Positions 10,301-57,267 of a stretch of 64,000 nt of DNA are shown one piece after another. A model generated the notes under the pieces. That model did no database searches. It saw only the letters and a program-made list of their open reading frames with translations, and was not told the DNA's origin. Both the position numbers and the translations under genes were made by a program. The stretch is from assembly GCF_044647545.1 (NCBI RefSeq), contig NZ_CP172818.1; one strand, written 5' to 3'. This stretch comes from Escherichia coli (lineage in GTDB: Bacteria; Pseudomonadota; Gammaproteobacteria; Enterobacterales; Enterobacteriaceae). Position 1 is the stretch's first letter; each line of letters opens with the position of its first letter.

Positions 10301-10308
10301 TTCATCGG

Positions 10309-13185: not shown

Positions 13186-13281
13186 TTCACTGGCGGCGGT
13201 AAGATAATTACCGCCGCAGTCTCACCTCTTTCACCATTCCCGCCTTGAGGATTGCGCGTAAATCGTGCATAACTCCCTTAT

Positions 13282-23856: not shown

Positions 23857-23894
23857 ACCGCTACAACTACTGACCAACGCTTCTTTACCTGATA

Positions 23895-25085
23895 TCAGGA
23901 TTTCTTCATTTTCACCTTTGCGGTGACCAATAACGCCGTCAGCAACATCAATGTGCCGGACAACATCAACGGCGAAGTCAGACCAATATTATCCAGCGCA
24001 TAACCGCCGATTGCCGCGCCACAGGTATTAGCAAGCTGAATAACCGCCACCTGAATAGACCCGGCTTTTTCTGCCTGATCGGCCAGTGAGCGGGTGATCC
24101 ACGTTGACCAGCCGACAGGAACCAATGCAAAAGTTAGCCCCCAGATAATCGCCACGCCGGTAGCAACGATTTTATCGCTTCCCCACAACGTCAGCACCAA
24201 CGCACTCACAGCCAGTATTAACGGCGCGCCTGCTAAGGCCAGTTTTACCGAACGTTTAAGAATGAACGACGAAAGCGACGTACCAATAAAGCTGGCGATA
24301 CCAAAACTCAACAGCACCAGCGTTAAGCCATCCACGCCGAATCCCGCCAGGTTCATATACACCGGGCGAATATACGTGAAGAAAGCAAACTGCCCGGCGA
24401 AAGACATGAAGATGGCGATCATCCCTGCCATCACACCCGGACGTTGTAATAAGCGGAAAGTATTTTGTTTCTGATGCGAGGGTTCGCCTGGCAGCGAAGG
24501 CAATGATTTGATAATCCAGAAAATACACAGCACGCCCATCACCGCCGCCGCATTAAAGACATTGCGCCAACCGATAAGCTCGCCTAAAAAACTGCCCAAC
24601 GGTGCGGCAATCACCAGCGCAATAGAAACCGCGCCGAAGATCACCGACAGCGCCTTCGGCACCGTACGCGGCGGTACCAGACGCATGGTCAGCGACGCCG
24701 ACATCGCCCAGAACCCACCCAGCGCCAGCCCCAGACAGGCACGACCGATTAAAAGCAAACTGAATGAGTTAGCAAAGGAAACCAGCAAGCAGGAGAGCGT
24801 CAGCAAAACGGCAAACAAAATAACAACATAGCGGCGGTCAGTGGCCTGAATGGTCTGGGTAATAAACAAACTGGCAAACATTGCCACAAAGGCGGTCACG
24901 GTCACCGATTGCCCGGCAACCCCTTCCGAAATGCCTAAATCCTGGGCCATTGGCGTCAACAAACTGACGGGCAAAAACTCAACGATAATCAGACAGGCGA
25001 CGCAAAACGCCACCGAGAAAACGGCTGACCAGTTCGGTCGGGTGATGGCATCCGCGCCGCGGTTTTCGGCAATAAATTCACTCAT
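23895..25085 (-). CDS. nepI: MFS purine ribonucleoside efflux pump
   Basis: 396 codons from the ATG at 25085 ([10 protein letters not shown]) inside track ORF 23895-25133. Confidence 0.9.
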
Positions 25086-25339
25086 GGTGTTACCCGTGGC
25101 ATGTTTCAGGGGAAAAGCCGACCACTTTAACATTGAAATGTGTGACGCATTTAACGTTTTTGCAACTTTTACGGTGTTGTGGGAAAAGTTCGAGGCTGCT
25201 CGAAGAAATAAAAATCATAGGGCAAGGTGATATGCATTTTCGCAATGGGGTTGGGAATAAGGGATAAAGTATTCATTGTGATATACTTTAATAACAGGAT
25301 CTCAACGATATACGCGTGTTTAAAACCAAATATTTTGCA

Positions 25340-25985
25340 AGGGAAGCCAGGTCTCAGCAAAAAAGAAAAAAAGTTGCCGGTTTAGAAACGGAACAAGGTA
25401 AAGCTGATGTACTTGGTGGTGGCGTTTTTAAAAAGCGCCTTCACCGAAATCGTGAGCGTGCAATTATTCTGCAAAAGGGGAAAAAAATTGTTTTTACACT
25501 TTTTTATATAAAAAAAAGGATATGTCAAAAATAAATAGCAAGAAACGGCTTGGTTTCCGTAAACTCCAAAACATTTTCCCCTCCCTACCAAAACCCAAAC
25601 AAAAAAAAAGATTAAAACAAAAAAACAAACAGAAATCCCCTAGACCCGAAAAAAAAAAATAAAAAACCCCCGCTTTTGGGCATTCCCAACCCCGCGGCCC
25701 GGGTTTCCCCCCCCCATGCTTTTTCTCCCCAAAAAAAACGTACTTTTACAAAACCCCCCCCACCAGCACGCAAAAACTACAACCCGGTGAAAAAAAAAAA
25801 ACACGGGAAAAAAAAAAAAGGAAGCCACCCCCCTTCGCCCCCATCCCAAAACCAGCGTTTCAACAGCACAAAAAAAGGAAAAGGGGCGCAAACCCCCCAG
25901 GGGTTCTTTAAAAATCCCCAGCATGGTGGAAAAAAAAGGGGGGGGGGGGGGGGAGTAAAAAAAAAAGAAAAAAGTCATACCAGCC
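25340..25985. other. Homopolymer-rich low-complexity block, non-coding; probable artefact or non-native insertion
   Basis: Composition degrades from ordinary sequence into long A, C and G runs (for example G16 at 25938-25953, A-runs of 10-14); no frame resembles a real protein; boundaries approximate. Confidence 0.7.
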
Positions 25986-25987
25986 CC

Positions 25988-26062
25988 AATACCGGATGCG
26001 GCGTGAACGCCTAATCCACCCTACAGGTCAGGCGCGGTCTGTAGGCTGATAAGACGAAGCGG
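25988..26062. repeat. REP (repetitive extragenic palindromic) element, partly degenerate
   Basis: CCGGATGCGGCGTGAACGCC ... GTAGGCTGATAAGACG closely resembles E. coli REP units, with several mismatches in the first unit. Confidence 0.7.
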
Positions 26063-26064
26063 TT

Positions 26065-26517
26065 TTAATGCAGCCAGTGAACGCCCTCGGCAGGCTGAAA
26101 GAACGCGTTATAGCGCATCTGAAAAGCATTAATATCCTGCATTTCAGGTTCGGTTTCGCGCAGAAAACCCAGCGCCAGCCTGACCTGAGCATCAGTAATC
26201 GGCGCGGCAAGGCGGGCTTTTTGTAAAATCCGATGCCATTGCAGCATGTTCTGTTCGCTACCATCGACAATGACAATTTGCCAGATGAGCAACACCTGCG
26301 CGGCGTTTTGCAGGTGCGACTCATCCGGGCGATGCAAATAACGTAAAAATTCGTCACCGGCTGACTTTCCCATTTGATCGACCATCGACTCCACGGGTAC
26401 GACATCGATGTTCAGCCGATCGCTGAGACGGCGAATCGCTTTTCTGGCCCCGGATGTCAGCACCCGAAAACCAATCACAAACACTACCGCCAGCGTGGCG
26501 AGCATTATCCAGATCAT
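26065..26517 (-). CDS. yicN: DUF1198-family protein YicN
   Basis: About 150 codons from the ATG at 26517 inside track ORF 26065-26544; N-terminal TM segment. Confidence 0.8.
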   Translation of the reverse strand: MIWIMLATLAVVFVIGFRVLTSGARKAIRRLSDRLNIDVVPVESMVDQMGKSAGDEFLRYLHRPDESHLQNAAQVLLIWQIVIVDGSEQNMLQWHRILQKARLAAPITDAQVRLALGFLRETEPEMQDINAFQMRYNAFFQPAEGVHWLH

Positions 26518-26569
26518 GAGTTCTCCTGCGTAATCAGAACTCATAATATCTGGAAACCCTCGCCAGTTA

Positions 26570-27904
26570 CTAATCCACCAGAATAATCTTCAGTGCAAAC
26601 AGAGCTGCGACCACCACCACACACAGGTTCAGATCGCGCCAGCGCCCGGTGCACACTTTCATGATGCAGTACGACATAAAGCCGAGTGCAATCCCTTCGG
26701 TGATCGAGAAAGTAAAGGGCATCATCACCGTGGTAATAAATGCGGGCACCGATTCGGTAAAATCATCCCAGTTAACGCGCGCCAGGCTCGAAGTCATCAG
26801 CACGCCAACAAAGATTAACGCTCCGGCGGTTGCGTAAGGAGGAACCATCGCCACCAGCGGTGAGAAGAACATAACCAACAGGAACATAACGCCGACCACA
26901 ACCGCAGTCAGCCCCGTGCGACCACCGACAGCCACACCTGAAGTACTTTCAATATAGGCGGTAACAGACGAGGTACCGATAAACGCACCCGCCACCGAAC
27001 TGACGCTATCAACATACAGCGCCTTATTCATATTGGGGAATTTACCGTTACTATCTATTAAGCCAGCTTTATCAGTTACACCAATTAATGTTCCTGATGA
27101 ATCAAATAAGTTGATCAGCATAAAGGAGAAAATGATACCGGCGAGTTCAAGTGATAACGCGCCGCTCAAATCCACTTCACCAATGACGCCGCTAATATCA
27201 GGCGGAATGGAATAGACGCCGCTAAAATGAACATCACCGAAAAATAATCCACAGCAAGACGTCACCACAATAGAAACAAGCACCGCGGCATGAAAATGAC
27301 GTGATGACAACACGGTTATAATAAAAAACCCTAAAATACCTAACAACACGCCGTGAGAACTTAAATCGCCAATCATCACCAGGGTGTCTTTATTGGCGAC
27401 AATAACGCCAGTATTTTTTAATCCCATTAAGGCGATAAATAATCCGATTCCGCTGGTGATACCAATACGTAAACTTAATGGAATGTTGGAGATCATCCAG
27501 TACCGGATACGAAACAGCGTGAGCAAAAATAGCCCAACTGCGCCCCAGAATATCGCGCCCATCCCGGTCTGCCAGGAGATACCCATCGCCCCCACGACCA
27601 CGAACGCAAAGAAGGCGTTCAGCCCCATTGCCGGAGCCAGCGCCACGGGTAAGTTAGCAAATATCCCCATCGCAATACTGCCGATACCGGCAATCAAACA
27701 GGTGGTAACAAACACCACTTTCGGGTCCATTTGTGCCGCGCCGAGGATTTGCGGGTTCACAAAAACGATGTACACCATGGTTAAAAAAGTGGTCATCCCC
27801 GCAATCAATTCTGTGCGGACGGTGGTCCCATGCTGAGGTAGTTTAAATAATCGCGAAAGCGTCCCTGATTCATTACTCACGTAATCGGTATTGTCATTAT
27901 TCAT
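26570..27904 (-). CDS. adeQ: Adenine permease (NCS2/AzgA family)
   Basis: 444 codons from the ATG at 27904 (MNNDNTDYV) inside track ORF 26570-27982; divergent from ade. Confidence 0.9.
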   Translation of the reverse strand: MNNDNTDYVSNESGTLSRLFKLPQHGTTVRTELIAGMTTFLTMVYIVFVNPQILGAAQMDPKVVFVTTCLIAGIGSIAMGIFANLPVALAPAMGLNAFFAFVVVGAMGISWQTGMGAIFWGAVGLFLLTLFRIRYWMISNIPLSLRIGITSGIGLFIALMGLKNTGVIVANKDTLVMIGDLSSHGVLLGILGFFIITVLSSRHFHAAVLVSIVVTSCCGLFFGDVHFSGVYSIPPDISGVIGEVDLSGALSLELAGIIFSFMLINLFDSSGTLIGVTDKAGLIDSNGKFPNMNKALYVDSVSSVAGAFIGTSSVTAYIESTSGVAVGGRTGLTAVVVGVMFLLVMFFSPLVAMVPPYATAGALIFVGVLMTSSLARVNWDDFTESVPAFITTVMMPFTFSITEGIALGFMSYCIMKVCTGRWRDLNLCVVVVAALFALKIILVD

Positions 27905-28078
27905 TTTTTTGTCCATTGGAGGAGATTTAATCCCTTGCTTTTGTAAAACAAATGACAACAACGGTTCAGTGATAATTATCACATTTCAATTGCACATTAA
28001 TGGATATTCTTTAATAATCTCGCGACGTTTCTTTATGATAAATAATAATCAAATTGATAAAATCAAAATGAGAAAAAT

Positions 28079-29845
28079 ATGAATAATTCTATTAACCATA
28101 AATTTCATCACATTAGCCGGGCTGAATACCAGGAATTGTTAGCCGTTTCCCGTGGAGACGCTGTTGCCGATTATATTATTGATAATGTCTCTATTCTCGA
28201 CCTGATCAATGGCGGAGAAATTTCCGGCCCAATTGTGATTAAAGGACGTTACATTGCCGGTGTTGGCGCAGAATACGCTGATGCTCCGGCGTTGCAGCGG
28301 ATTGATGCCCGCGGCGCAACGGCGGTGCCAGGGTTTATTGATGCTCACCTGCATATTGAATCCAGCATGATGACGCCGGTCACTTTTGAAACCGCGACCC
28401 TGCCGCGCGGCCTGACGACCGTTATTTGCGACCCTCATGAAATCGTCAACGTGATGGGCGAAGCCGGATTCGCCTGGTTTGCCCGCTGTGCCGAACAGGC
28501 AAGGCAAAACCAGTACTTACAGGTCAGCTCTTGCGTACCCGCTCTGGAAGGCTGCGATGTTAACGGTGCCAGTTTTACCCTTGAACAGATGCTCGCCTGG
28601 CGGGACCATCCGCAGGTTACCGGCCTTGCAGAAATGATGGACTACCCTGGCGTAATTAGCGGGCAGAATGCGCTGCTCGATAAACTGGATGCATTTCGCC
28701 ACCTGACGCTGGACGGTCACTGCCCGGGTTTGGGTGGTAAAGAACTTAACGCCTATATTGCTGCGGGTATTGAAAACTGCCACGAAAGTTATCAGCTGGA
28801 AGAAGGACGCCGGAAATTGCAACTCGGCATGTCGTTGATGATCCGTGAAGGGTCCGCAGCCCGCAATCTCAACGCGCTGGCACCGTTGATCAACGAATTT
28901 AACAGCCCGCAATGCATGCTCTGTACCGATGACCGTAACCCGTGGGAGATCGCCCATGAAGGACACATCGATGCCTTAATTCGCCGCCTGATCGAACAAC
29001 ACAATGTACCGCTGCATGTGGCATATCGCGTAGCCAGCTGGTCGACGGCGCGCCATTTTGGTCTGAATCACCTCGGCTTACTGGCACCCGGCAAGCAGGC
29101 CGATATCGTCCTGTTGAGCGATGCGCGTAAGGTCACGGTGCAGCAGGTACTGGTGAAAGGCGAGCCGATCGATGCGCAAACCTTACAGGCGAAAGAGTCG
29201 GCGAGACTGGCACAATCCGCTCCGCCGTATGGCAATACCATTGCCCGCCAGCCTGTTTCCGCCAGCGACTTTGCCCTGCAATTCACGCCCGGAAAACGCT
29301 ATCGGGTCATTGACGTCATCCATAACGAATTGATTACCCACTCCCGCTCCAGCGTCTACAGCGAAAACGGTTTTGATCGCGATGATGTGTGCTTTATTGC
29401 CGTTCTTGAGCGTTACGGACAACGACTGGCTCCGGCCTGTGGTTTACTCGGCGGCTTTGGCCTGAATGAAGGTGCGCTGGCGGCGACGGTCAGCCATGAC
29501 AGCCATAATATTGTGGTGATAGGTCGTAGCGCAGAAGAGATGGCGCTGGCGGTCAATCAGGTGATTCAGGATGGCGGCGGGCTGTGCGTGGTCCGTAACG
29601 GTCAGGTACAAAGTCATCTACCGTTGCCCATTGCCGGGCTAATGAGCACCGACACGGCGCAGTCACTGGCGGAGCAAATTGACGCCTTGAAAGCCGCCGC
29701 CCGTGAATGCGGTCCGTTACCCGATGAGCCGTTTATTCAGATGGCGTTTCTTTCCCTGCCAGTGATCCCCGCGCTGAAACTAACCAGTCAGGGGCTGTTT
29801 GATGGCGAGAAGTTTGCCTTCACTACGCTGGAATTCACGGAATAA
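28079..29845 (+). CDS. ade: Adenine deaminase
   Basis: 588-codon amidohydrolase with metal-binding HxH motif ([10 protein letters not shown]). Confidence 0.95.
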
Positions 29846-29854
29846 TAAAAAAAA

Positions 29855-29873
29855 GCCCGGCGTCATGCCGGGC
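29855..29873 (-). terminator. Rho-independent terminator shared by convergent ade and uhpT
   Basis: GCCCGGC-GTCAT-GCCGGGC hairpin flanked by an A8 run on the + strand (U-run for the minus-strand uhpT transcript). Confidence 0.75.
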
Positions 29874-29891
29874 AAAAGTCACCAGTTACGT

Positions 29892-31283
29892 TTATGCCAC
29901 TGTCAACTGCTGAATTTTTTTCTCGCGGCGGATTTTGCGTTCTTCCATCACCGCCACTATCGCCATCAGGCAGATACAACCAATCGCGGCGATATCCAGC
30001 GCGGCGAAGGTGCCTGCCCAGCCGGTAAGGCCAAATACCGGCGTCCCATCGGCAATCATTCCCAGACCTAACTTGGCAAAGCTGTCACCAATCAGGTAAG
30101 CGAAGGTGCCTTTAATACCATCGGCAGCGCCAATCGCTTTTTTAGGTACAAAGCCAACAGCAGCTACACCAATCAACAATTGCGGGCCAAAGACCAGGAA
30201 ACCCAACGCAAAGAGAGAAGCAAGGTAGATATATTCGTTGCTGGCGTGTTGATACACACCGAGCGTGGCGATAATCAGCGCCAGCGCGATACAGGCCACC
30301 AGGCCACGGCGACCGTTCGCCAGGTCAGAGAGCCAGCCCCACAGCAGCGTACCGACCAGCGCACCAGCTTCAAACAGCGTAAAGCCCTGAATCGCCACCG
30401 CTTTAGAGAGTTTCAGTTCCTGGAACGCATACACGGTTGACCACTGGTCGATACCAATACGCACCACATAGAGGAAAATGTTGGCAAAGCACAGCAGCCA
30501 GATCACTTTGTTTTTCAGCACATACTCAACAAAGATCTGCCACTTGGTCATATCGGTAGATTCTGTCTCTTTATCCTCTTCACTGATCTCCTCGCCAAAC
30601 AGCTCTTCAGCTTTGCCGAGGCCATAAGATTCCGGGGAGTCGCTGCCGTAACGCAGACCGATAAAACCAACAATCAGCGCGATAATCGACGGGAAAATAA
30701 ACATGCCGATGACATGACCATCGAACAGGTAATTTGCGCCGAACAGCGCCACACCTGCTGCGCCTGCACCACCAAGGTTGTGAGAAATGTTCCAGAAACC
30801 GAGGAATGTCCCGCGTTTACGACGCGGCGTCCATTTGGTGATGGTGGAGTAACTGCACGAACCGCCGGTACTCTGGAAAAAGCCGCTTAAGGCGTAGAAG
30901 GCAATCATCAGGAACAGGCTAACCGAGCCGCTGCCCATACTGGCGCTGAAGCCCAGCATACAAATGGCAGACAGGATCAGCATGAACGGCAGGAATTGTT
31001 TGGTGTTTTTGCCGTCGGCGTAGTAAGAAACCAGCGTTTTACCCACGCCATAAGTGATGGAGAAGCCCAGGCCGATCATCCCCAGCTGCGTCATGCTCAA
31101 CCCGTAGGTCGAGATCATGTCGTTCTGCGCGATGTTAAAGTTCTTGCGAATCAGGTACATCGTAAGGTAGCCGATAAAGACCACCAGGTAGGATTGCATG
31201 AACGGTTTGAACCACATTTTGCGCCGCACTTCGAGCGGAAGGTCCAGGGTCGGCTTGCGAACCTGGTTTAAGAAAGCCAGCAT
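29892..31283 (-). CDS. uhpT: Hexose-6-phosphate:phosphate antiporter
   Basis: 463-codon MFS organophosphate:Pi antiporter. Confidence 0.95.
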
Positions 31284-31359
31284 GGGTTACTCCTGAAATG
31301 AATACCTGCGTGAGGCATGCATTGTAAAAATCAGCAGCAAATCAGGCCTGAGATAGCGT

Positions 31360-31374
31360 CCAGGCAAAACCTGG
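31360..31374 (-). promoter_or_regulatory. Inverted repeat in the uhpT promoter region, candidate UhpA binding site
   Basis: CCAGGCAAAACCTGG palindrome about 80 bp upstream of the uhpT start. Confidence 0.4.
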
Positions 31375-31420
31375 AAAATTTCTTAGTTTTGCCGGATATG
31401 AAGTGAAAAGGTGAGATGCA

Positions 31421-32743
31421 TCACGCTTCTCGCGGTGTCTGGGCGTTCAAAAAGGGCAGTAATAGCAGTGCGGAAATCCCGGCGGCGATGGCGATAACCA
31501 CAAAAAATCCGCTCCAGTGCCAGGTATCGAGTACTTTCGCCAGCGGCCAACCAGCAAGCGACGCACCAAGATAAGCAAACAAGCCGACAAATCCCGTCGC
31601 CGCCCCTGCTGCCTCTTTGTGGGAACACTCTGCCGCCGCCATGCCGATTAACATCTGCGGGCCAAAGACAAAAAAACCAATGGTGAAGAAGCAGGTTGCC
31701 TGCATCACGTAGCTGGCAAATGGCATCAGCCACAGCGAGCCGACTGAAAGCAAAATTCCGGCAGCGAAAATCAAATTCATCGGCCCGCGGTTGCCGTTAA
31801 AGAGTTTGTCCGAGCCCCAACCCGCTACCAGCGCACCGATAAATCCGCCCAGTTCAAACATCGTCACAGCCGTATTCGCCGTGACCAGATCGACGCCCAG
31901 CGTCTCGGACATATACAAATTGCCCCAGTCGTTGATCGCCGCCCGAACCACATAGACCAGCACATAGCAAAACGAAAGTAGCCAGATATACGGATTCAGC
32001 AACACATACTTGGTGAGGATCTCTTTACGCGTCAGCCCTGCCCCTTCTTGTTGTTGAGCAATCTCCAGCGCGTCGTGCCGCCATTCACCAACCGCTGGTA
32101 AACCTAACGCCTGCGGGCGATCGCGCAGCCGCCAGCAGAGAAAAATCCCCACGACGATCGCCATACAACCAGCAATCATCATCCCGGCACGCCAGCCGTA
32201 ATGCAGCGCAGCTGCTGCCATCACAATGGGAATGAGCGCACCGCCAACGTTATGCGCCGTGTTCCATAATGCCCACCAACCGCCGCGCTCGGTACGAGAA
32301 TACCAGGCGGTTAACAGACGCGCACACACCGGTGAACCCCAGCCCTGGAAAAAGGCGTTCAACACCCAGAGCACGGCAAACGCCCATAGCGACGTCGAGA
32401 AGCCAAACAGAATGTTGATAATGCCCGTGGCGATAAGCCCTATCCCCATAAAATAACGGGCATTTGAGCGGTCGCTGACAATGCCGGAGACAAACTTCGA
32501 CACGCCGTAAGTAATGTAAAACAGGGTCGCTAACAGGCCGATATCGCTACGGCTGAGCACGCCGTTAGCAAGGATTTCTGGTACGGCGGCGTTAAAACTT
32601 TTACGCGTGAAGTAAAACAGCGCGTAACCCAGCCAGATGGTCAGCAGAATATGCCGACGCCAGTAGCGATAGCGGGCATCAATTTCATGTTTATCAGTCA
32701 TTAATGGCGCATCGGCAGGCGCTTTCAGAAACGGCAACATCAT
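31421..32743 (-). CDS. uhpC: Membrane sensor protein UhpC (UhpT paralogue)
   Basis: About 440-codon MFS protein paralogous to UhpT, upstream of uhpT and downstream of uhpB. Confidence 0.93.
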   Translation of the reverse strand: MMLPFLKAPADAPLMTDKHEIDARYRYWRRHILLTIWLGYALFYFTRKSFNAAVPEILANGVLSRSDIGLLATLFYITYGVSKFVSGIVSDRSNARYFMGIGLIATGIINILFGFSTSLWAFAVLWVLNAFFQGWGSPVCARLLTAWYSRTERGGWWALWNTAHNVGGALIPIVMAAAALHYGWRAGMMIAGCMAIVVGIFLCWRLRDRPQALGLPAVGEWRHDALEIAQQQEGAGLTRKEILTKYVLLNPYIWLLSFCYVLVYVVRAAINDWGNLYMSETLGVDLVTANTAVTMFELGGFIGALVAGWGSDKLFNGNRGPMNLIFAAGILLSVGSLWLMPFASYVMQATCFFTIGFFVFGPQMLIGMAAAECSHKEAAGAATGFVGLFAYLGASLAGWPLAKVLDTWHWSGFFVVIAIAAGISALLLLPFLNAQTPREA

Positions 32744-32749
32744 CGAACC

Positions 32750-34255
32750 TTAGACATAGCGTTGAGGTAGAGAAACGCTGACACGCGTGCCGTGCAAACA
32801 GGAGATGGTCAAGGTGCCGCCCAGCGCCGTTACGCGCTCGCGCATTCCGGTGAGGCCAAAACCTTGTTGCCCGGAACCCGGCGGCAAACCGCTGCCATCG
32901 TCTTCAATTACCAGCATCAACCGTTCATCCTGCTGCCAGCCTTGCAGGGTGACCGCGCTGGCATCGGCATGTTTCACAATGTTGTTCAACCCTTCCTGGC
33001 AGACGCGAAACAGCGTCACGCGCTGGTTTTCGCTTAACGCTGATTCATCGATTCGCCATTCGAGATGACTGACAATGCCGCGCCCTTCCAGCTCCATTTC
33101 CCGCATCAGTGAGCGGATGGCCTGCTCCAGGGTGAGATCATCCAGCTGGCGCGGACGTAACCGCCCTAACAAACGGCGCACCGCATCGTAAACACCCAGC
33201 GACAGTTGTTCGATGAGCTGCCCGCTCTGCTTCACGCTGGCGTTATCTGCCGCCAGCCGCTGAACAATACCTGCTTGAGTACGAATAGCAGTGATGGTCT
33301 GACCGATATCGTCGTGCAGCTCACGCGCCACATCACGGCGCACGCTCTCTTCAGTTTCTAACAAACGTTCAGCCAGATGCTGATTGCGCGCTAGTTCCTT
33401 TTGCAGCGACTGGTTAAGTTCACGCAACCGCTGGATGCCTGCGCCCAGTAACAACCCTGTCAGACTTTGCACCAGCAGCGAGAGCAATAAATCCACCGAA
33501 TGATCGCGCCAGGTTTGACTGGCGATCAGCGCGATGGCGTTCATCAACGTCGCAATCAGCGCCCCTTGCCAGCCGTAGTGCCAGGCCAGCGCGATAATCG
33601 GCAGCGCCAGGCAGAATGGCGTAAAGCGCGACAGTTCGTCCGGCAATCCCAACTGGAGCCAGAGACTGATAACAAACAGCAGCAAGTACCAGACCAGATG
33701 CCGCCCGCGCCAGTTGATCGGTTGAGAAACTAACGACGGCCCGAGCGGCAGCCAGATGTTATTGGCGAGATAGTGCCAGAACACCAGACATATCGGGGCC
33801 AGCGTCAGGCCGCCAGTTAAAGTCAGCAACAGCGCATTCCACGACTCTTTCCCGTGCCAAAGCCAGGGCAGCGACTGCAACAACGCCGCCGCCGTCAGCG
33901 CCGCACCCTGTAACAGCAAGGTGCGCCAGTCACGTTGATGGCGATAGCGCGAGATCAGCGCCACGGGCAATAACGTCAGTAAACTACCGATCATCAATAA
34001 GGAGAAATGGGTTAAACCGACCGCCTGCATTAGCCAGTAAATCAGCAGCCACTCCGCACCCAGTAGCACCGGCCAGTATCCGCGCGGGCATTGCAGCATT
34101 AGCCCTAGCCGCAGGCCAAACGGAAATAACAGCACCGCCATATCAGGGCGCTCAACAAGGTGCAGGCTGATACTCCACAGGCAAAACCATGCGGCAGAGA
34201 AGATAAAAAAGCAGGCAATAACGGTAATTAAGCGAGAGAAAAACGTCTTCATCAC
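32750..34255 (-). CDS. uhpB: Sensor histidine kinase UhpB
   Basis: About 500-codon protein with N-terminal multi-TM domain and C-terminal HisKA_3/HATPase region (HDDIGQ motif). Confidence 0.93.
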
Positions 34256-34842
34256 CAGCCATCAAACATGCGGCGCGCCAGTTCAACGTCGTTACTGACG
34301 CCCAGTTTTTCCATCAGGTTAGCGCGATGGACGTGTACCGTTTTCGGTGACAAGCCCAGTTCGGCGGCAATCTCTTTCACCGCCATTCCTTGCGCCAGTT
34401 TTTCCGCCACCTGGCGTTCGCGTTTGGTCAGCGGGTCCTGGCGACCGGATGCCAGTTTAATGGCAATATCCGGCGTCAGATAACAGCCGCCCGTGGCAAC
34501 CGTATGCACCGCAGCAATCAGTTCGTCAGGGCTACAACGCTTGGAGAGAAAGCCGCGCGCCCCCGCGTTAAGCGCCTGCTCAACCAGCGCCGGACTGTCA
34601 TGAACAGAGAGCATAATCGTCGCCATACCTTTCGGCAGCTGGCTTAGCAGCTCCAGACCGGAGATATCGGGCATGGAGATATCGCAAATACACACCTGCA
34701 CACCGCGCCCCGGCAGCCCCGCCAACGCCTCGCGCCCCGAACCAAACTCGGCAACTACCTGCAAATCAGGTTCCAGCCCCAGCAGCTGCGCAAAGCCGGA
34801 GCGGACGATGAGGTGATCGTCTATAAGTGCAACGGTGATCAT
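34252..34842 (-). CDS. uhpA: NarL/FixJ-family response regulator UhpA
   Basis: 196 codons from the ATG at 34842 ([10 protein letters not shown]); receiver domain plus LuxR-type HTH; overlaps uhpB by 4 bp. Confidence 0.93.
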
Positions 34843-35149
34843 GATTGGGTCCTGGCGGATAAAAAACGCGCATACCTTAACGATAAGCGCGATGTTGTTC
34901 AAGTTGGATATGGGGTATGTATTCTTAATGATGTTGTCTTATCTCAAAACTTACGAAAGTAACGTTGTAGTTTATTCGAAAAACGAATTATTTGTAGTTC
35001 GATTGCAATATTCCTGAAAAATTTCTCCTCCTTCGAAATCTTTTCAGTAACAAAGATCATCCAAAACCTATAATCTTCACGGAACCTCATTAAGAGATCA
35101 TCCACGAGTCGTTATGAATATAATCCTCACCGTATTCGATAAAAGAAAT

Positions 35150-36737
35150 AAAAAATAAAACTAACAATCTATTGTTTTAAAAAAAAAAGGTTGGGAAAGA
35201 AGGGAAAAACAAGAAAAAAAATTTTTTCCCAAGAAAAAAAAAAACCGGGTAACAACAAACCGGGAAAAAAAAAAAAGGTTCCTGATAAAATACCCCCTAT
35301 CAACCGACAGAAACCTTGAACAACATAATACATTACCTATTCCTGAAATACTGAACAAGAAATAATTTTCGTTTTTTCCAACAATTAAAAATTCCAAAAA
35401 ATAAATCAGCAAAAAAATTCAAAAAAAATTCGGAAATTTTTCCAACCACAAAAAACTTATCCCAAAATCAGATGGCATTAATTTTAACCAAAAAAAGAAA
35501 ATGACCCCCCAATTTCGCCAAAGAAAAAAGGAAAAACCCCAAAAAAAATTTTTAAAATTAAAAAAAAAAAGAAATAATTAAGAATAATGATTTCTATATA
35601 TTAATGGCAACAAACAAATATTAAATTACAACACAACACAAACAAACTTTAAGTAAATTACTATACAAATCAATAACAATAACACCTTAACACACAAAAC
35701 AACCTACATTTCACAGTCATAACGAAAAAAATCATAAAACCACTCAATAAATAAAACACCGAAACAAATATAAAAAACATAAAAAAAAAAAAAAAAAAAA
35801 AACAAGAAAAAAAAAAAAAATAAAATAAAAATAAAAAAAAAAACGAAACGAAAAAATAATAAACAATAAAAGACCCCCACAAACAAACAAATCAAAACTA
35901 CACTCACTCCCCCTGATTGATTAAAAAAACATCTCTCAGATATAAAATACATAAAACAAACAAAAAAATAAATGAAAAAAAACAACAAATAAATAATTTA
36001 ATAATAAAAATAAAAATATTACGCAACAACAACTATCAACAAAAAAAATAAAAAAAAAAAACAAAGATAAGAAACGTAAGAAAAAAAAAAAAAAAAAAAA
36101 AAAAGACGAAAAAAAAAAAAAACTATGAATCCGAACAAGTAAAAAAAAAAAAAAAGAACAAACAATAACCAATCAAAAAAAAAAAAATAAATAAAAAAAA
36201 AAAATTCATTTAAAAAATGAAAAAAACACAAAAAAATAGAAAACAAAAAAAATAAAACAAACGGAAAAAAAAAAAAAAAAAAAAGAAGACTGAAGAAAAA
36301 AAATACTAAAAAAATAATTAATATTAAACCAAAAATAAAAAAAAATAAAAAATAAAAAACTAAAAAAACACAAAAAATCAACAAAAAATAAAAAAAAATA
36401 AACAAACCAAAAAAAAAAAAAAAAAAAAACGAAAACATTAAAATATATAACAAAATAAAAACTAAAAAAACAAAAAACAAACAAAAAAAAAAAAGAAATA
36501 ACAATAAAAAAAAAATTATAAACAACCAAAACAAATATAAAAAAAAAAACGAAAACAAAAAAAAATTAAAAAAAAAAAGAAAAATATAAAAAAAAAGAAA
36601 AAAGAAGAAAAATACAAAAAACAAAAAAATAAAAAAAAAAAAAAACACAAAAAAAAAAAAGAAAAACGAAAACAAGAAAAAAAAGAAAAATGTAAAATCA
36701 GCAAAATTCAGAAAATTTGAAAGAGAAAAAACCAAAA
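35150..36737. other. About 1.6 kb A-rich low-complexity block between uhpA and ilvN, non-coding; probable artefact or non-native insertion
   Basis: Long poly-A runs (up to about 23 nt) with sparse C, G and T; minus-strand track ORFs are poly-Phe/Leu artefacts of the T-rich complement; ends exactly at the ilvN stop codon; start approximate. Confidence 0.75.
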
Positions 36738-37028
36738 TTACTGAAAAAACACCACGATCTTGTTAAACATCGTCGGATTAGACTGATTACGCTGCACTTT
36801 CACCACATCTTCCAGCTTATCGATTTGGCTTATCACCTACTCCAGACGCTGGTCATCCTTGACCAGTAGCCAGATATGGCTTTTGTCGCTGTCCTGAATC
36901 GGCAGGCAGAGAATGCCTTCAACGTTAAAAGCGCGACGGGCAAAAAGCCCACAAACGTGAGTCATTACGCCCGGATGGTTGCGAACGGTGAGTTCGAGAA
37001 TCACGTTGTCATGAGTTGTGTTTTGCAT
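36738..37028 (-). pseudogene. ilvN: Acetolactate synthase I small subunit, reading frame interrupted by an in-frame TAG at codon 64
   Basis: First 63 codons match IlvN; TAG at 36837-36839; the same frame continues [32 protein letters not shown] to the TAA at 36738-36740. Confidence 0.8.
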
Positions 37029-37031
37029 GGC

Positions 37032-38720
37032 TTATTCCCCCACCATTTCAGTATTCGCCGCACCTGGCGGCACCATCGGGTACACTTTTTCTTCGGCATC
37101 AATACGCACATGGATCAGCGCCGGGCCAGGGCGATTGATGATTTCCTGTAATGCAGCCTGCGGATCGGTTTCGTTATTCAAATCACAGGTTTCGAGGCCG
37201 AATCCGGCGGCAATCTGCATAAAGTTGATTTTTCCCGGATAGGTAGCGGCAAAAACGCCCTGCTTGTAGAACAGACTCTGTTGCTGATGTACCAGCCCCA
37301 GCGCTTCGTTGTTCATCAGAATGATTTTGACATCCAGCTGATTTTCACTGGCGGTCGCCATCTCCTGAATATTCATCATCAGGCTGCCGTCGCCGGAGAA
37401 ACACAACACTTTGCGATCCGGGTTCGCCAGCGCTGCGCCAATCGCCGCAGGCAGGCCAAAGCCCATCGTGCCCAGCCCGCCGGAGGTCAGCCACTGGCGC
37501 GGGCGATTGAGCGGATAAGCCTGCGCCGTCCACATCTGATGCTGACCCACGTCGGTGGTGATAATCGCGCTGTCATCGACACAGGCGGCAACAGCGTTGA
37601 TCAGGCCGTAATGCGTTAACGGATCGCACGCTTTCGGGATTGGACACGGGAATTCGCGCTGCAAATCCGCCACCAACTGGTGCCACTCTGCACGCGGTTG
37701 CGCTTCCACCAGCGGGATCAATTGCGCCAGCACGTCATCAACATCCGCCTGAATCGCTACGTGCGGTTGCTTGATTTTGCCCAGCTCTGCACGGTCGATA
37801 TCGACATGAATGATTTTCGCATTCGGGCAGAACTGCTCGGTTTTGCCAATCGCCCGGTCATCAAAACGCGCACCGAGCACAATCAGCAGATCCGCCTCCT
37901 GCAGTATATAGTTGGTGCTGCGCACGCCGTGCATCCCCAGCATACCCAGCGACAGCGGATTCGCTTTTGGCAGCATGCCCAGCGCCATTAAGGTCATGGT
38001 AGTTGGCAATTGCGCTTTCTCTGCCAGTTCACGCACCCGTGCGGGCGCATTGATCACACCGCCGCCCAGATAAAGCACCGGGCGTTTGGCGGCGTTAATC
38101 ATTGCCGCTGCGTCACGAATGCTTTCTTCGCTAAAGGCGGGTGCGGCGGCTTTTTCTGCCATAGCTGGCTGTGCTTCAATCTCAAAAACCGCCGTTTGCA
38201 CATCTTTAGGAATGTCTATCCACACCGGGCCAGGGCGGCCTGATTGCGCAATGCGGAAGGCATCGCTCATGACCTGCGGGAGTTCTTCGATATGTCTGAC
38301 CAGATAGTTGTGTTTGGTGATGGGGATAGAGATGCCGTAGGTGTCCACTTCCTGGAAGGCGTCGGTGCCGATCATCGAGGCAGGAACCTGACCGGTGATG
38401 CAAATCAGCGGGATGGAATCCAGCCGCGCATCGGCAATGGCGGTCACCAGGTTAGTCGCACCCGGTCCGCTACAGGCCATACAGACCGCCGGTTTACCGT
38501 CGGTGCGCGCCATTCCCTGAGCGATAAACCCCGCGCCCTGTTCATGGCGAGCCAGAATATGGCGGATTTGCGTGCTTTGGCTTAAGGCATCGTAAACAGG
38601 CAGGATAGAACCGCCCGGAATGCCCGTCACAATCTTAATGCCCTGCTGTTCCAGGAAATGAACGATAAATTCTGCGCCGGTAAAGCGCTTACGCGTCGAT
38701 GTTGTGCCCGAACTTGCCAT
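37032..38720 (-). CDS. ilvB: Acetolactate synthase I large subunit
   Basis: 562-codon ThDP-dependent enzyme MASSGTTSTRKRFTGAEFIVHFLEQQGIKIV. Confidence 0.95.
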   Translation of the reverse strand: MASSGTTSTRKRFTGAEFIVHFLEQQGIKIVTGIPGGSILPVYDALSQSTQIRHILARHEQGAGFIAQGMARTDGKPAVCMACSGPGATNLVTAIADARLDSIPLICITGQVPASMIGTDAFQEVDTYGISIPITKHNYLVRHIEELPQVMSDAFRIAQSGRPGPVWIDIPKDVQTAVFEIEAQPAMAEKAAAPAFSEESIRDAAAMINAAKRPVLYLGGGVINAPARVRELAEKAQLPTTMTLMALGMLPKANPLSLGMLGMHGVRSTNYILQEADLLIVLGARFDDRAIGKTEQFCPNAKIIHVDIDRAELGKIKQPHVAIQADVDDVLAQLIPLVEAQPRAEWHQLVADLQREFPCPIPKACDPLTHYGLINAVAACVDDSAIITTDVGQHQMWTAQAYPLNRPRQWLTSGGLGTMGFGLPAAIGAALANPDRKVLCFSGDGSLMMNIQEMATASENQLDVKIILMNNEALGLVHQQQSLFYKQGVFAATYPGKINFMQIAAGFGLETCDLNNETDPQAALQEIINRPGPALIHVRIDAEEKVYPMVPPGAANTEMVGE

Positions 38721-38768
38721 GCTCCAGTCCTTTTCTTCTGGGCCGACTTTCCGGGAGGTGCTTAAACG

Positions 38769-38798
38769 AAAAACCCCGCCCGGTTTGCGCCGGCGGGG
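38769..38798 (-). terminator. ilvB attenuator terminator
   Basis: On the minus strand a CCCCGCC ... GGCGGGG hairpin followed by a U-run, between ivbL and ilvB. Confidence 0.75.
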
Positions 38799-38825
38799 TT
38801 TTGGAATCGTGTGTTGTTCCAGTCC

Positions 38826-38924
38826 CTACGGCGCATTGCCGACGACGACCACCACACGCACGACGACCACTGCGGCGGATGGCGCAGTTGGTAGTAGTTT
38901 TGCGTTGAGCATGGAAGTAGTCAT
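38826..38924 (-). CDS. ivbL: ilvB operon leader peptide
   Basis: 32-codon ORF MTTSMLNAKLLPTAPSAAVVVVRVVVVVGNAP rich in Val and Leu, upstream of the attenuator. Confidence 0.9.
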   Translation of the reverse strand: MTTSMLNAKLLPTAPSAAVVVVRVVVVVGNAP

Positions 38925-39049
38925 TGGGGACCTTGTTGGTTTTGTGTTTAACAATATTTATACAAGCACAGCTTTACAGGGGAGACAATGGAAAATTTTT
39001 CAGCAAGGGAAAATTGAGGGGTTGATCACGTTTTGTACTGAATTGCGGG

Positions 39050-39190
39050 TAACAAAAAACCCCGCCGGAGCGAGGTTTCGTCAGTCGCCTGCGGCTGGTA
39101 ACCGCAAAGCACACTGTATTATGTCAACACTGAAAGTATACGTGTTCCGCGCAGAACGCGCAATTTCGGCACGAATTTTGACGTATTTAG
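39050..39190 (-). ncRNA. istR: IstR small RNA region (IstR-1/IstR-2), antitoxin of tisB
   Basis: Minus-strand hairpin plus U-run terminator near 39054-39080; the segment near 39108-39128 is complementary to the tisAB leader near 39370-39390; transcript ends approximate. Confidence 0.55.
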
Positions 39191-39236
39191 TACATAGTTG
39201 AGTATCGTTCACAGTTTTCGTTTTGTCCAAATATTA

Positions 39237-39252
39237 CTGTTTATTTATACAG
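39237..39252. promoter_or_regulatory. LexA box between divergent istR-2 and tisAB
   Basis: CTGTTTATTTATACAG, a CTGT-N8-ACAG palindrome. Confidence 0.8.
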
Positions 39253-39488
39253 TAAACTTCTATAATATCACTGTACGCAATGTGTTATGCGGGGGCCGCA
39301 TCGTTACCCGGCGCACTAAGTCCTGGCTGAAACGGGTGGTGCCGTCAGCGCCTTAACCCCGCGTGAGCACACTGTGTTATGTCAACAAGCACAACGTTTC
39401 TCCTTGAGATACCGCGTGCACAACAGCTGGCAACAGGCAGCGGAAAGGTACGTCAGCTGGCAGTGCTCCTGAACCACAGGAGACGCGT

Positions 39489-39578
39489 ATGAGCCTGGTG
39501 GATATCGCCATTCTTATCCTCAAACTCATTGTTGCAGCACTGCAACTGCTTGATACTGTTCTGAAATACCTGAAGTAA
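39489..39578 (+). CDS. tisB: Type I toxin TisB (SOS-induced membrane peptide)
   Basis: 29-codon ORF MSLVDIAILILKLIVAALQLLDTVLKYLK. Confidence 0.9.
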   Translation: MSLVDIAILILKLIVAALQLLDTVLKYLK

Positions 39579-39857
39579 TTCAGATTCAAGTCGCACCAAA
39601 GGGGAGCGGGTAACCGCTCCCCTTTCATATTTAGCGTGCGGGTTGGTGTCGGATGCAATGCTGATGCATCTTATCCGCCCTACCATCCCTCCCGGCAACA
39701 TTTATTGCCGCTTTTGTTTACATATTCTGCCGCTAAACAATTCCCCATTCCTGGCGTATATCTGGCTAACATTTATCAATGTGATAGATTCCTCTCCCGC
39801 ATTTATGGGAATGCGTAGTGACTTATTCTAATTATTTTTATAAAAGCATCCGTGATA

Positions 39858-41042
39858 ATGAAAAGGCATAGAAACGTCAATTTGTTATTGATGTTGGTAT
39901 TACTCGTGGCCGTCGGTCAGATGGCGCAAACCATATATATTCCAGCTATTGCCGATATGGCGCGCGATCTCAACGTCCGTGAAGGGGCGGTGCAGAGCGT
40001 AATGGGCGCTTATCTGCTGACTTACGGTGTCTCACAGCTGTTTTATGGCCCGATTTCCGACCGTGTGGGTCGCCGACCGGTGATCCTCGTCGGAATGTCC
40101 ATTTTTATGCTGGCAACGCTGGTCGCGGTCACGACCTCCAGTTTGACAGTATTGATTGCCGCCAGCGCGATGCAGGGGATGGGCACCGGCGTTGGCGGCG
40201 TAATGGCGCGTACTTTGCCGCGTGATTTATATGAACGGACACAGTTGCGCCATGCTAATAGCCTGTTAAACATGGGAATTCTTGTCAGTCCGTTGCTCGC
40301 ACCGCTAATCGGCGGTCTGCTGGATACGATGTGGAACTGGCGCGCCTGTTATCTCTTTTTGTTGGTACTTTGTGCCGGTGTGACCTTCAGTATGGCCCGC
40401 TGGATGCCGGAAACGCGTCCGGTCGACGCACCGCGCACGCGCCTGCTTACCAGTTATAAAACGCTTTTCGGTAACAGCGGTTTTAACTGTTATTTGCTGA
40501 TGCTGATTGGCGGTCTGGCCGGGATTGCCGCCTTTGAAGCCTGCTCCGGCGTGCTGATGGGCGCGGTGTTAGGGTTGAGCAGTATGACGGTCAGTATTTT
40601 GTTTATTCTGCCGATTCCGGCGGCATTTTTTGGGGCATGGTTTGCCGGACGTCCTAATAAACGCTTCTCAACGTTGATGTGGCAGTCGGTTATCTGCTGC
40701 CTGCTGGCTGGCTTACTGATGTGGATCCCCGACTGGTTTGGCGTGATGAATGTCTGGACGCTGCTCGTTCCCGCCGCGCTGTTCTTTTTCGGTGCCGGGA
40801 TGCTGTTTCCGCTGGCGACCAGCGGCGCGATGGAGCCGTTCCCTTTCCTGGCGGGCACGGCTGGCGCGCTGGTCGGCGGTCTACAAAACATTGGTTCCGG
40901 CGTGCTGGCGTCGCTCTCTGCGATGTTGCCGCAAACCGGTCAGGGCAGCCTGGGGTTGTTGATGACCTTAATGGGATTGTTGATCGTGCTGTGCTGGCTA
41001 CCGCTGGCGACGCGGATGTCGCATCAGGGGCAGCCTGTTTAA
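39858..41042 (+). CDS. emrD: MFS multidrug efflux transporter EmrD
   Basis: 394 codons from ATG 39858 (MKRHRNVNLLLMLVLLVAVGQ); 12-TM MFS. Confidence 0.93.
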   Translation: MKRHRNVNLLLMLVLLVAVGQMAQTIYIPAIADMARDLNVREGAVQSVMGAYLLTYGVSQLFYGPISDRVGRRPVILVGMSIFMLATLVAVTTSSLTVLIAASAMQGMGTGVGGVMARTLPRDLYERTQLRHANSLLNMGILVSPLLAPLIGGLLDTMWNWRACYLFLLVLCAGVTFSMARWMPETRPVDAPRTRLLTSYKTLFGNSGFNCYLLMLIGGLAGIAAFEACSGVLMGAVLGLSSMTVSILFILPIPAAFFGAWFAGRPNKRFSTLMWQSVICCLLAGLLMWIPDWFGVMNVWTLLVPAALFFFGAGMLFPLATSGAMEPFPFLAGTAGALVGGLQNIGSGVLASLSAMLPQTGQGSLGLLMTLMGLLIVLCWLPLATRMSHQGQPV

Positions 41043-41049
41043 GCTCACG

Positions 41050-41547
41050 TCACCGCAGCATCGTCATCAGCTCCATGGGAGAACGATGCTGCTTTATCAG
41101 ATCACGCATCACCCGCATATGCGGCGCGGAGTAAGAATAAAACGCCTGATAGCCCGCACAAAGCACGTTGTCTGGCGTCTCCTCCCGAGCGTGCGGGCAC
41201 AGGCGATGCCAGTCGCACGCCTGGCAGCCACGACGCGGTTGCGGGTTTTCGCTGCCACACCATTTTTGTAGGGTGGCGTCAAAAAGCTCAATCGAAATAC
41301 GACTGATATCTGCCCGTACCCAACACTCGAACAGGGCAATTAAAAATTTCCCCCACAGCTCTGCTGTCACCGAAGCGGCCGTCAGATCGCCCCGGTCATC
41401 AAATTCAAGATGGGGAATAAGCTGTACGGAGCGGATACCCCGTTGTTTGAAATTGTGATAAAAATCGGCAGGTTGCAGAGCATCCTTGTACTCTACAACC
41501 AGTTTATGCCTGTCCTCTTCAGCATCAATGACCTGACTTCCTGTCAT
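41050..41547 (-). CDS. yidF: Truncated anaerobic-sulfatase-maturase-like protein (Cys-rich C-terminal domain only)
   Basis: 165-codon ORF with clustered Cys (CGSENPQPRRGCQACDWHRLC) but no radical-SAM CxxxCxxC core. Confidence 0.8.
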   Translation of the reverse strand: MTGSQVIDAEEDRHKLVVEYKDALQPADFYHNFKQRGIRSVQLIPHLEFDDRGDLTAASVTAELWGKFLIALFECWVRADISRISIELFDATLQKWCGSENPQPRRGCQACDWHRLCPHAREETPDNVLCAGYQAFYSYSAPHMRVMRDLIKQHRSPMELMTMLR

Positions 41548-41906
41548 GCGACTCTCTCAATAAATACGATAAGTTGATGTATATGCGTTACAGCAAACAG
41601 TATTGCGAGAGATAACACCGCGAGGGAGATCAAAAATTTGTCACGGACTACGTGAAATTGGGAAAAATCGCTATTCGTGACATCCATTAAATTGCGATTA
41701 CGGGTGTAGTGCCAGAGGATCAGCGCCACAATGGCGAGAATGCCAATCGAAATCCAGAATAACATGCCCGCCTGGTGCCAGTTGTGTTTGATAGCCAACG
41801 CCATCAACGCGCCGTAGCCCAGCATGGTACGAAACCACGCCAGTGATGTACGCTCCGGCTGCAGCCCTGGGTCGGCAATGCGTCTGGCTTTGCGGCTATC
41901 CGGCAT
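41544..41906 (-). CDS. yidG: Small inner membrane protein YidG
   Basis: 120-codon ORF with three predicted TM helices; overlaps yidF and yidH. Confidence 0.8.
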   Translation of the reverse strand: MPDSRKARRIADPGLQPERTSLAWFRTMLGYGALMALAIKHNWHQAGMLFWISIGILAIVALILWHYTRNRNLMDVTNSDFSQFHVVRDKFLISLAVLSLAILFAVTHIHQLIVFIERVA

Positions 41907-42243
41907 ACAACACCAGTCCCATAACGATCACCGCCACGACCATCAATATTAAGCTGATGATTAATAAGCTGTTGGTGTAGGGCAGGTCCTCTTTCAGACG
42001 CATCGCTTTTTCATTGCGTAACCAGCGCAGGTAGCCATACATCGCTAACCCGCCGGAAAACAGACACAACAACAACGCCAGCAGTTCGCGAATGACGGGC
42101 GTGGCGAAATCTGGCGCAAGTTGATCAAGCCCAACCCCCGCCGCCAGAAAGCCTAGTGCGGTACGGATCCACGCCAGAAAAGTACGCTCATTAGCCAGCG
42201 AGAAGCGATAATCAGGTGCTTCTCCGAGGCGGGAAATTTTCAT
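41896..42243 (-). CDS. yidH: Small inner membrane protein YidH (DUF202)
   Basis: 115-codon hydrophobic ORF. Confidence 0.8.
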   Translation of the reverse strand: MKISRLGEAPDYRFSLANERTFLAWIRTALGFLAAGVGLDQLAPDFATPVIRELLALLLCLFSGGLAMYGYLRWLRNEKAMRLKEDLPYTNSLLIISLILMVVAVIVMGLVLYAG

Positions 42244-42302
42244 TGTTGCTCCTTAACTGTTCCTCGCCGAAAAAAGTAGGCCAGGAAAACAGCAATAATG
42301 CA

Positions 42303-45674: not shown

Positions 45675-49021
<3,347 letters not shown>

Positions 49022-57148: not shown

Positions 57149-57267
57149 AGCGAGCTTTCTCCAGATTTTGGGCATAGCGAAGCCGCTCACCATGCCCTGT
57201 AATTTACAGAGGGTTATATTTTTGTATTGCTGTTTTAGTGCCCGATGAGGGGCTTACGTGGCAGGAA

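Follow-up and report, generated by a model that had tools for sequence, protein, structure and literature searches.

The stretch of DNA between uhpA and ilvN raises a simple question in the 64-kb segment of Escherichia coli sequence analysed here (the window): is the long, adenine-dominated block that separates the two genes a part of the chromosome, and if it is not, what does it replace and how could such a text have been written? That the block is present, and that it lies far beyond what chance would give, is plain from its composition. Across 34904-36737, the base fractions are 0.623 for A, 0.135 for C, 0.070 for G and 0.172 for T, compared with 0.253 for A in the remaining window, and over the final 1.2 kb of the block (35541-36737) A reaches 0.717 while G stands at 0.044. 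Runs of at least 8 A's number 45 in the window, and 33 of these fall in the block. An earlier note on this DNA had put the longest poly-A runs at about 23 nt; such long runs do occur, the four longest measuring 24, 22, 21 and 20 nt, which moves the maximum to 24 nt. The increasing repetitiveness that the same note described is borne out by a sliding profile of three-mer entropy (200-nt windows), which drops from about 4.8 to 2.9 bits across the block against a window median of 5.63, and the gradient is monotonic along the plus strand, with a Spearman correlation with position of -0.89 for entropy and +0.90 for the A fraction.

The spacer from the uhpA start (34842) to the ilvN stop (36738) amounts to 1,895 bp in the window, and to 72 bp in E. 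coli genomes that carry no island at this locus, such as NZ_AP025214.2. The window departs from these island-less genomes at 34904, the damage proper begins at 34924, and an error tail of 10 substitutions extends from the block into ilvN, up to 36960. Thus, the limits of 35150 and 36737 that had been proposed for the block need to be replaced by 34924-36737 plus the substitution tail to 36960.

None of the familiar kinds of genetic element fits the block. Its open reading frames on the minus strand (36019-36735 and others) are strings of Phe and Leu that match no NCBIfam or PHROG family, in agreement with the initial view that there is no coding capacity here. The block resembles an insertion sequence or other mobile element in being extra intergenic-spacer DNA relative to K-12, but it differs from one in having neither terminal inverted repeats nor a transposase or other recognisable open reading frame nor a target-site duplication; in fact, no pairs of inverted repeats of at least 14 nt were found in 34700-36900, and no target-site duplication was seen at the junctions, where the block takes the place of 10 bp of the island-less spacer. 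That it is not a mobile element had likewise been concluded from the letters. A search of 34500-37100 with Rfam at the gathering threshold gave no matches. Tandem Repeats Finder returned many overlapping periods, from 1 to 139 nt, and its long rows over approximately 35940-36690 have 64-71% matches and consensus units made of A only, so the repeats are low complexity with no consistent unit and not an array. In the absence of a period, an Rfam match, inverted repeats or family hits, we dropped the tandem-repeat, RNA, mobile-element and coding readings of the block.

The relatives of the sequenced strain show what belongs at this locus. A distant search with the block against 5,426 complete E. 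coli genomes found that around 1,100 of them, or about a fifth, match the start of an island located between uhpA and ilvN. In the island-bearing genomes that we examined (MS1050 and CFSAN061771), this island is AT-rich and 3.4-3.5 kb long; in CFSAN061771, where it is present, 3,425 bp separate ilvN from uhpA. Its GC content is about 36% in MS1050, and it has no A bias of its own (A 0.30, T 0.34). Over most of its length, the window matches ST405-like genomes at 99.8-100%, such as CFSAN061771 (NZ_CP042896.1), FDAARGOS_497, Ecol_881 and MS6198; against NZ_CP042896.1, there are 3 differences in the first 15,016 nt (1-15016) and 1 in 25986-34923. Because these near-identical ST405-like genomes carry the island, the true sequence of the uhpA-ilvN locus can, judging by this comparison, be taken as known for practical purposes. 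The earlier view, in which extra sequence had entered a short spacer like that of K-12, with nothing homologous at the locus, is wrong: the block stands in place of the 3.4-kb island of the strain's relatives. A homologous element at the same locus in related genomes had been named as something that would speak for real sequence, and one was found, namely the island; the A-rich text was not. Nothing close to that text occurs in any of the 5,426 complete E. coli genomes, and the collections of species-representative genomes and metagenomes lack the exact strings that were taken from the block's G-depleted head and its A-rich body.

The idea that the whole window is about 3% diverged from every E. 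coli, and hence entirely model-generated, was considered and rejected in view of the 99.8-100% matches of the ST405-like genomes. The impression of divergence had come from a best flank identity of 97%, changes that were mostly synonymous and three "premature stops"; the 97% value arose because the initial ranking favoured island-less genomes. Two of these stops, in cbrA and yicH, appear only against the annotation of MS1050, and CFSAN061771 annotates a shorter cbrA and a shorter yicH; in the stretch of yicH that was checked, the window is identical to CFSAN061771. Judging by these annotations and that stretch, both are most likely natural alleles.

With CFSAN061771 as the reference, the locus can be laid out part by part as follows.

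34252-34842, minus strand: uhpA, intact, the left flank, taken from the list of open reading frames, with 0 differences from CFSAN061771.
34843-34903, no strand: genuine upstream spacer of uhpA, common to island-less and island-bearing E. coli and equal to the start of the CFSAN061771 spacer; homology to NZ_AP025214.2 ends at 34903.
34904-34923, no strand: the first 20 nt of the real island, an exact copy according to k-mers that match spacer/island positions 62-81; divergence from CFSAN061771 begins at 34924.
34924-35149, minus strand: copy of the island with base drop-out, showing 33 deletions and 1 substitution against CFSAN061771, in which the frame of the 479/489-aa orphan gene (3′ end from about 34988) is destroyed.
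35150-35540, minus strand: weakening trace of the island, which becomes less faithful and richer in A as it proceeds, colinear with island positions of about 330-900.
35541-36737, no strand: free-running, A-rich, low-complexity text, unrelated to the approximately 2,500 bp of island whose place it takes.
36738-36960, minus strand: 3′ part of ilvN with the error tail, comprising 10 substitutions, 0 indels and a premature TAG at 36837-36839.
36961-37028, minus strand: the remaining 5′ part of ilvN, faithful, the right flank, from the list of open reading frames and the comparison with CFSAN061771.

The block is thus like the uhpA-ilvN island in its locus, its left junction and its first 20 nt, and from 34924 to about 35540 it is colinear with island positions of about 82-900. 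The stretch 34843-34923 is identical to the spacer and island start of both CFSAN061771 and MS1050. Immediately thereafter, in 34924-35149, bases are lost one or two at a time, the 33 deleted bases being 25 G, 5 T and 3 C. Exact colinear matches to the island extend to 35366, and the best-matching island positions of successive sliding chunks advance steadily (331, 391, 451, 521, 581, 661, 731 and 801) up to the chunk that starts at 35493, after which the order is lost. Colinearity ends at about 35540, or island position of about 900; all later chunks prefer the most A-rich spot of the island, and neither exact k-mer matches nor the sliding best-match search gave any ordered island signal beyond that point. 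A longest-common-subsequence test, which included a projection onto A and C only and used block-shuffled sequences as controls, gave an excess (z = 10.6) that stems only from the stretch up to about 35540, and we therefore rejected the possibility that the block is a G- and T-depleted colinear read of the whole island. The differences from the island are equally clear: the block has 1,834 nt against about 3,360 nt for the island proper, only around a quarter of it is traceable, and both island genes are destroyed or absent. In a BLAST search with the 489-aa gene, only its nucleotides 1292-1470 matched, with 17 gaps, the C-terminal coding part corresponding to 34988-35149; the 160-aa island gene had no BLAST match in the window, and the list of open reading frames holds no intact island gene there, only the poly-Phe artefacts. 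The 3′ end of the block, just before 36738, is dissimilar to the true end of the island, and homology returns exactly at the ilvN stop codon (36738), which is also the junction in island-less genomes.

Over the 223 nt of the error tail in ilvN (36738-36960), 8 of the 10 substitutions are private to the window and the other 2 are K-12 alleles. One of the changes, G to A at 36839, creates the premature TAG on the minus strand and leaves a truncated 63-aa open reading frame at 36837-37028. The stretch 36961-42254 differs from CFSAN061771 only once. The apparent ilvN pseudogene in the window is not to be trusted.

The problem is not a local one: four other segments of the window are similarly damaged. 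A second low-complexity zone at 25274-25985 is a blurred copy, in register, of a RelE/ParE-HTH toxin-antitoxin islet. It contains 132 substitutions and 43 indel bases; A (65) and C (43) predominate among the new bases, as do G (47) and T (47) among those lost, and the new base equals its left neighbour in 73% of cases. The damaged copy keeps its register throughout the 810 nt of this islet (islet 1, 25180-25989). Alignment to K-12 MG1655, a check that the earlier note had called for, places both low-complexity zones inside islets that are absent from K-12 (25180-25989 and 34904-36737), and each zone stops 0-4 nt from the right edge of its islet. Damage was also found in the 528-nt remnant of a BglG/PTS island, with 3 single-base indels, and at a yidI-less junction, with a 3-nt deletion and three inserted A's. 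When errors against CFSAN061771 were counted over window positions 10849-55000, with classes set by the MG1655 alignment, the two classes compared as follows.

Shared with K-12: 40,907 positions, 40,599 of them alignable to CFSAN061771, in which 18 substitutions were counted, 10 belonging to the ilvN tail, together with a single indel base.
Absent from K-12 (five segments): 3,245 positions, 1,634 of them alignable to CFSAN061771, with 133 substitutions and 85 indel bases.

The corresponding odds ratio for damage is 285 (p of about 2e-275), and five of the five absent segments are damaged. AT-richness as the trigger can be rejected, as equally AT-rich core segments have at most one substitution: there are 0 differences in 19801-20450 (minimum GC 0.29), and for 27701-28300 (minimum GC 0.31) there is one, at 28392.

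Several junctions in the window are also peculiar. At 15016/15017, the ST405-type yicH runs to GCAGTAAA, and it is followed by the 10-mer CATCAATCTC, the continuation seen in island-less (K-12-type) sequence; from there, the window resumes at the sole copy of that 10-mer, 6.7 kb into a 7,280-bp BglG/PTS island, in which the 10-mer would be expected 0.007 times by chance. This junction occurs in 0 of the 5,426 complete E. coli genomes. Another A-rich filler, of 25 nt, occupies 46780-46804, precisely where K-12 has the junction of its 506-bp glvG deletion, and is flanked by sequence of the ST405 type; glvG is intact in ST405-like genomes, and the filler contiguous with its flanks was found in no genome. 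At yicS-nepI (23858-23900), the junction lacks the island and resembles that of K-12, again between ST405-type flanks, and its best full-length match is 97.2%; its 43-nt filler differs from MG1655 at 2 positions. These 2 differences led us to reject MG1655 itself as a consensus backbone, which could at most have had a K-12-like structure. The selC junction, by contrast, is natural, with a 100% match in relatives. In all, two or three junctions of the window are chimeras that occur in none of the complete genomes. Such jumps require knowledge of alternative alleles, and read noise has none.

Taken as a whole, the block is most likely not a real biological feature. We consider it highly probable that it is an in-silico or instrument-software artefact, a garbled rendering of the real 3,425-bp uhpA-ilvN island and not the organism's DNA. 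Low-quality or in-silico sequence had already been suspected from the composition, and the comparison with the island, together with the rule that damage follows absence from K-12, makes this the best reading. The text would come from a procedure that copies the conserved E. coli backbone almost without error but breaks down where the strain has insertions of its own. The copy of the island starts exactly and then loses the locally rarest base (G, with some T and C), follows the island with less and less precision over about 700 nt, loses the template altogether and runs on for about 1.2 kb in self-reinforcing, A-rich homopolymer text; it re-anchors exactly at the boundary between island and core, that is, at the ilvN stop codon, and trails substitutions for about 220 nt before returning to perfect copying. 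Jumps at short shared words also belong to this signature, which is the kind that neural or autoregressive sequence decoders produce. We infer that it has a prior for the island-less, K-12-like structure.

Regarding what such a procedure might be, two candidates are the likeliest: an autoregressive genome language model or other neural sequence decoder, and a reference-guided neural consensus or polishing step run on an insertion-less backbone. A neural consensus of the latter kind would account for the window's combination of a real strain's single-base haplotype with a K-12-like gross structure. Its fidelity at the level of the strain, and the way in which islet 1 is blurred yet stays in register, favour a process with access to the real strain's data. 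The 1.2 kb of free-running text and the allele jumps favour a generative component. We know of no standard polisher that yields an A-rich collapse. The behaviour of language models offers a partial parallel. Their collapses share with the block a one-directional loss of complexity to homopolymer-dominated text after plausible output, as well as the best fidelity on common backbone, failure on rare accessory sequence and jumps between alleles. Multi-kilobase homopolymer "low-complexity collapse" has been documented for long generations by Evo 2, in which one base is repeated for 5-10 kb or longer once 300-400 kb have been decoded (bioRxiv 10.64898/2026.01.17.700093). The block differs from the Evo 2 collapses in being 1.2 kb long, in being interrupted by other bases and in recovering. 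Moreover, the window keeps a specific minority haplotype at approximately 100% identity, which is not expected of free generation: a free language model trained on species representatives should not have held the ST405-like haplotype at 99.98% for tens of kb. The in-register copy of islet 1 likewise looks more like the blurred reading of a template than free generation.

An artefact need not involve any prior, and the text could be wet-lab junk, such as the low-quality tail of a long read from a stalled nanopore or a dying polymerase that was assembled at a thinly covered spot. There are precedents for this. For instance, NZ_CP095532.1, deposited as "plasmid unnamed1" of E. coli GN06156, contains about 2 kb of poly-A/CA junk (1.9 kb of which we read) within a 2.4-kb CDS annotated as a hypothetical protein, and this junk is 69% identical to the block over 1.1 kb. 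Junk does occur in public "complete" assemblies, and the statement that E. coli has no comparable sequence class is not quite true of the databases. The two cases have in common kb-scale, A/C-rich, low-complexity text that is called as long fake open reading frames, but NZ_CP095532.1 is a separate linear contig of small size whose junk is surrounded by frameshifted genes, whereas the block lies inside a stretch of chromosome that is otherwise free of errors, takes the place of a known island and rejoins the core exactly. The loss of G and T with a gain of A and C is strand-asymmetric, as would be expected if a signal channel had failed, and the copy of islet 1, being in register, is like a blurred read. 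Nevertheless, the 40.9 kb shared with K-12 contains 1 indel base and essentially no read-type errors; the damage is confined to the five segments that K-12 lacks, and read noise is blind to accessory status; recovery is exact at the junctions between island and core; and the chimeric junctions use the island-less allele. We thus regard sequencer junk, although it is the main rival reading, as unlikely.

Human hands could also have been at work, with a synthetic low-complexity text pasted, deliberately or by accident, into a real record, for instance to serve as a decoy or placeholder. The window does consist mostly of real genome, and the block is absent from every collection searched. A pasted block would be sharp-edged, however, and this one has a graded onset, with G drop-out and loose tracking over 700 nt, and a graded exit, with 10 in-register substitutions inside ilvN; there is, in addition, similar graded damage at four other places. 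Manual editing is accordingly very improbable to us. We give even less weight to the possibility that the text is real DNA in which an A-rich tract took the place of most of the island, whether by template-independent or slippage synthesis or as the remnant of a poly-A-tailed retroelement. Nothing positive speaks for it. No bacterial process is known that would leave one strand 72% A over 1.2 kb while entropy declines smoothly along it; neither a reverse transcriptase nor repeats nor a period were found; and ilvN would have acquired a nonsense codon and 8 private substitutions in the space of 220 nt and then none for 5 kb. Similar damage in four unrelated accessory segments also stands against it, as does the lack of any related sequence in the 5,426 complete E. 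coli genomes and of the exact strings in the species-representative and metagenome collections. In its most specific form, in which the A-rich tract belongs to the chromosome of a living ST405-like E. coli whose island (about 2.5 kb of it) was overwritten by untemplated or slippage-driven A-rich synthesis, with ilvN mutated collaterally, we find the proposal scarcely credible; were it true, the overwriting of an island by A-rich synthesis would be a mutational process undescribed in bacteria.

If the block is an artefact, as we believe, it has no biological importance, and its value is that of a flag for data integrity. The window is not a faithful genome sequence: in otherwise real ST405-like sequence, wherever K-12-like genomes lack a segment, the window has it garbled, cut short or left out. 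Findings that fall in 15017-15554, 23858-23900, 25180-25989, 34904-36960, 42255-42302 or 46780-46804, or in similar segments from the same source, should be distrusted. The matter also extends to protein collections, as a gene caller would make long poly-Phe "hypothetical proteins" from the block, and this is a route by which junk enters protein databases, of which NZ_CP095532.1 is an example from RefSeq.

If anything at this locus merits study, it is the island itself, taken from intact genomes. It carries two orphan genes, both annotated as hypothetical, that encode proteins of 479/489 aa (WP_001361939.1/WP_139156651.1) and 160 aa (WP_059337323.1/WP_038428612.1). We found no match for these proteins in Pfam, NCBIfam or PADLOC, and no literature on the uhpA-ilvN island. 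What has been overwritten in the window is an uncharacterised, fast-diverging gene pair found only in Escherichia. The family that the island encodes consists of Escherichia-restricted orphans, with alleles that are 40-100% identical, and the 160-aa protein is a distant paralogue of the C-terminal part of the large one (E = 9e-7).

The A-rich block between uhpA and ilvN is not the only damaged place in the window, and a second corrupted zone was found within a toxin-antitoxin islet that K-12 does not have. This zone, together with two shorter features and the loci from other genomes, is listed below.

Features discussed in the text (window coordinates unless a locus is named)
25180-25989: RelE/ParE toxin and HTH antitoxin islet, absent from K-12, damaged at 25274-25985
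36837-36839, minus strand: premature TAG in ilvN (CAG>TAG through G>A at 36839)
46780-46804: A-rich filler of 25 nt, TTTCCCACAAAAAACAAAAAAAAAA, replacing a 506-bp stretch of the gene for 6-phospho-alpha-glucosidase (glvA/glvG)
L002 (locus from NZ_CP097726.1) 6125-8352 and L006 (locus from CFSAN061771, NZ_CP042896.1) 30955-33155: real uhpA-ilvN island genes, products of 479/489 aa and 160 aa
L003 (locus from E. coli GN06156 "plasmid unnamed1", NZ_CP095532.1) 2475-4877: CDS with poly-A and CA-rich junk inside it, about 2 kb (2470-4300 read)

The islet copy is blurred by homopolymers (runs include G16, C9, and A12) yet remains in register. Most of its 132 substitutions introduce A or C, indels account for another 43 bases, and the copy is clean again 4 nt short of the islet's right edge. 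In ilvN, nine substitutions accompany the G>A change at 36839 within 36754-36960, and eight of the ten are private to the window. Rather than marking a real ilvN pseudogene, these substitutions, with the TAG, are the error tail of the A-rich block. The glvA/glvG filler lies, between ST405-type flanks, exactly at the junction of the deletion that K-12 has in glvG (repeat GTGGTTC), and none of the 5,426 complete genomes carries it contiguously.

Two further features are island junctions. At the chimeric junction 15016/15017, an ST405-type yicH end passes through the island-less 10-mer CATCAATCTC into the tail of a BglG/PTS island, entered at the only island copy of that 10-mer, so that 6.7 kb are skipped and only the final 538 nt (15017-15554) of the 7.3-kb island remain, with three single-base indels (15201, 15283, and 15381); this junction was found in 0 of 5,426 complete genomes. 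The yicS-nepI junction (23858-23900, 43 nt) is K-12-like and island-less between flanks that are ST405-type on both sides, and its top full-length match in complete genomes reaches only 97.2%. In contrast to the window, MS1050 and CFSAN061771, the sole ST405-like relative looked at here, carry an 18-kb T3SS/inverse-autotransporter island at this site.

In intact genomes, the two uhpA-ilvN island proteins are uncharacterised, restricted to Escherichia, and without matches in Pfam, NCBIfam, or PADLOC. Identity between alleles of the 479/489-aa protein ranges from 40 to 100%, and the 160-aa protein is a distant paralogue of its C-terminal part (E = 9e-7). As a pair of orphans that diverge quickly and occupy one fixed site in the chromosome, the two may merit a study of their own in such genomes. 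The junk in the RefSeq record NZ_CP095532.1 sits within a 2,403-nt CDS annotated "hypothetical protein" (WP_268101233.1), adjoined by frameshifted genes, and exemplifies a route by which low-complexity sequencer output reaches protein databases.

Smaller differences occur elsewhere. The yidH-yidJ junction (42255-42287) lacks yidI (593 bp), which is present in K-12, and carries small errors: against CFSAN061771, 3 nt (GTA) are missing and three A's have been inserted. In the gyrB-yidB spacer, the window lacks 9 nt that its best match, RS571, has; this deletion falls at 62981-62983, directly past a short G+C-rich inverted repeat, and could be natural variation or one more small skip. Finally, dgoT-yidX (56010-60828) shows 43 differences, chiefly transitions, from RS571 (best of 5,426 genomes, 99.6% overall), a pattern suggestive of natural polymorphism acquired from a recombination donor outside the sampled genomes.
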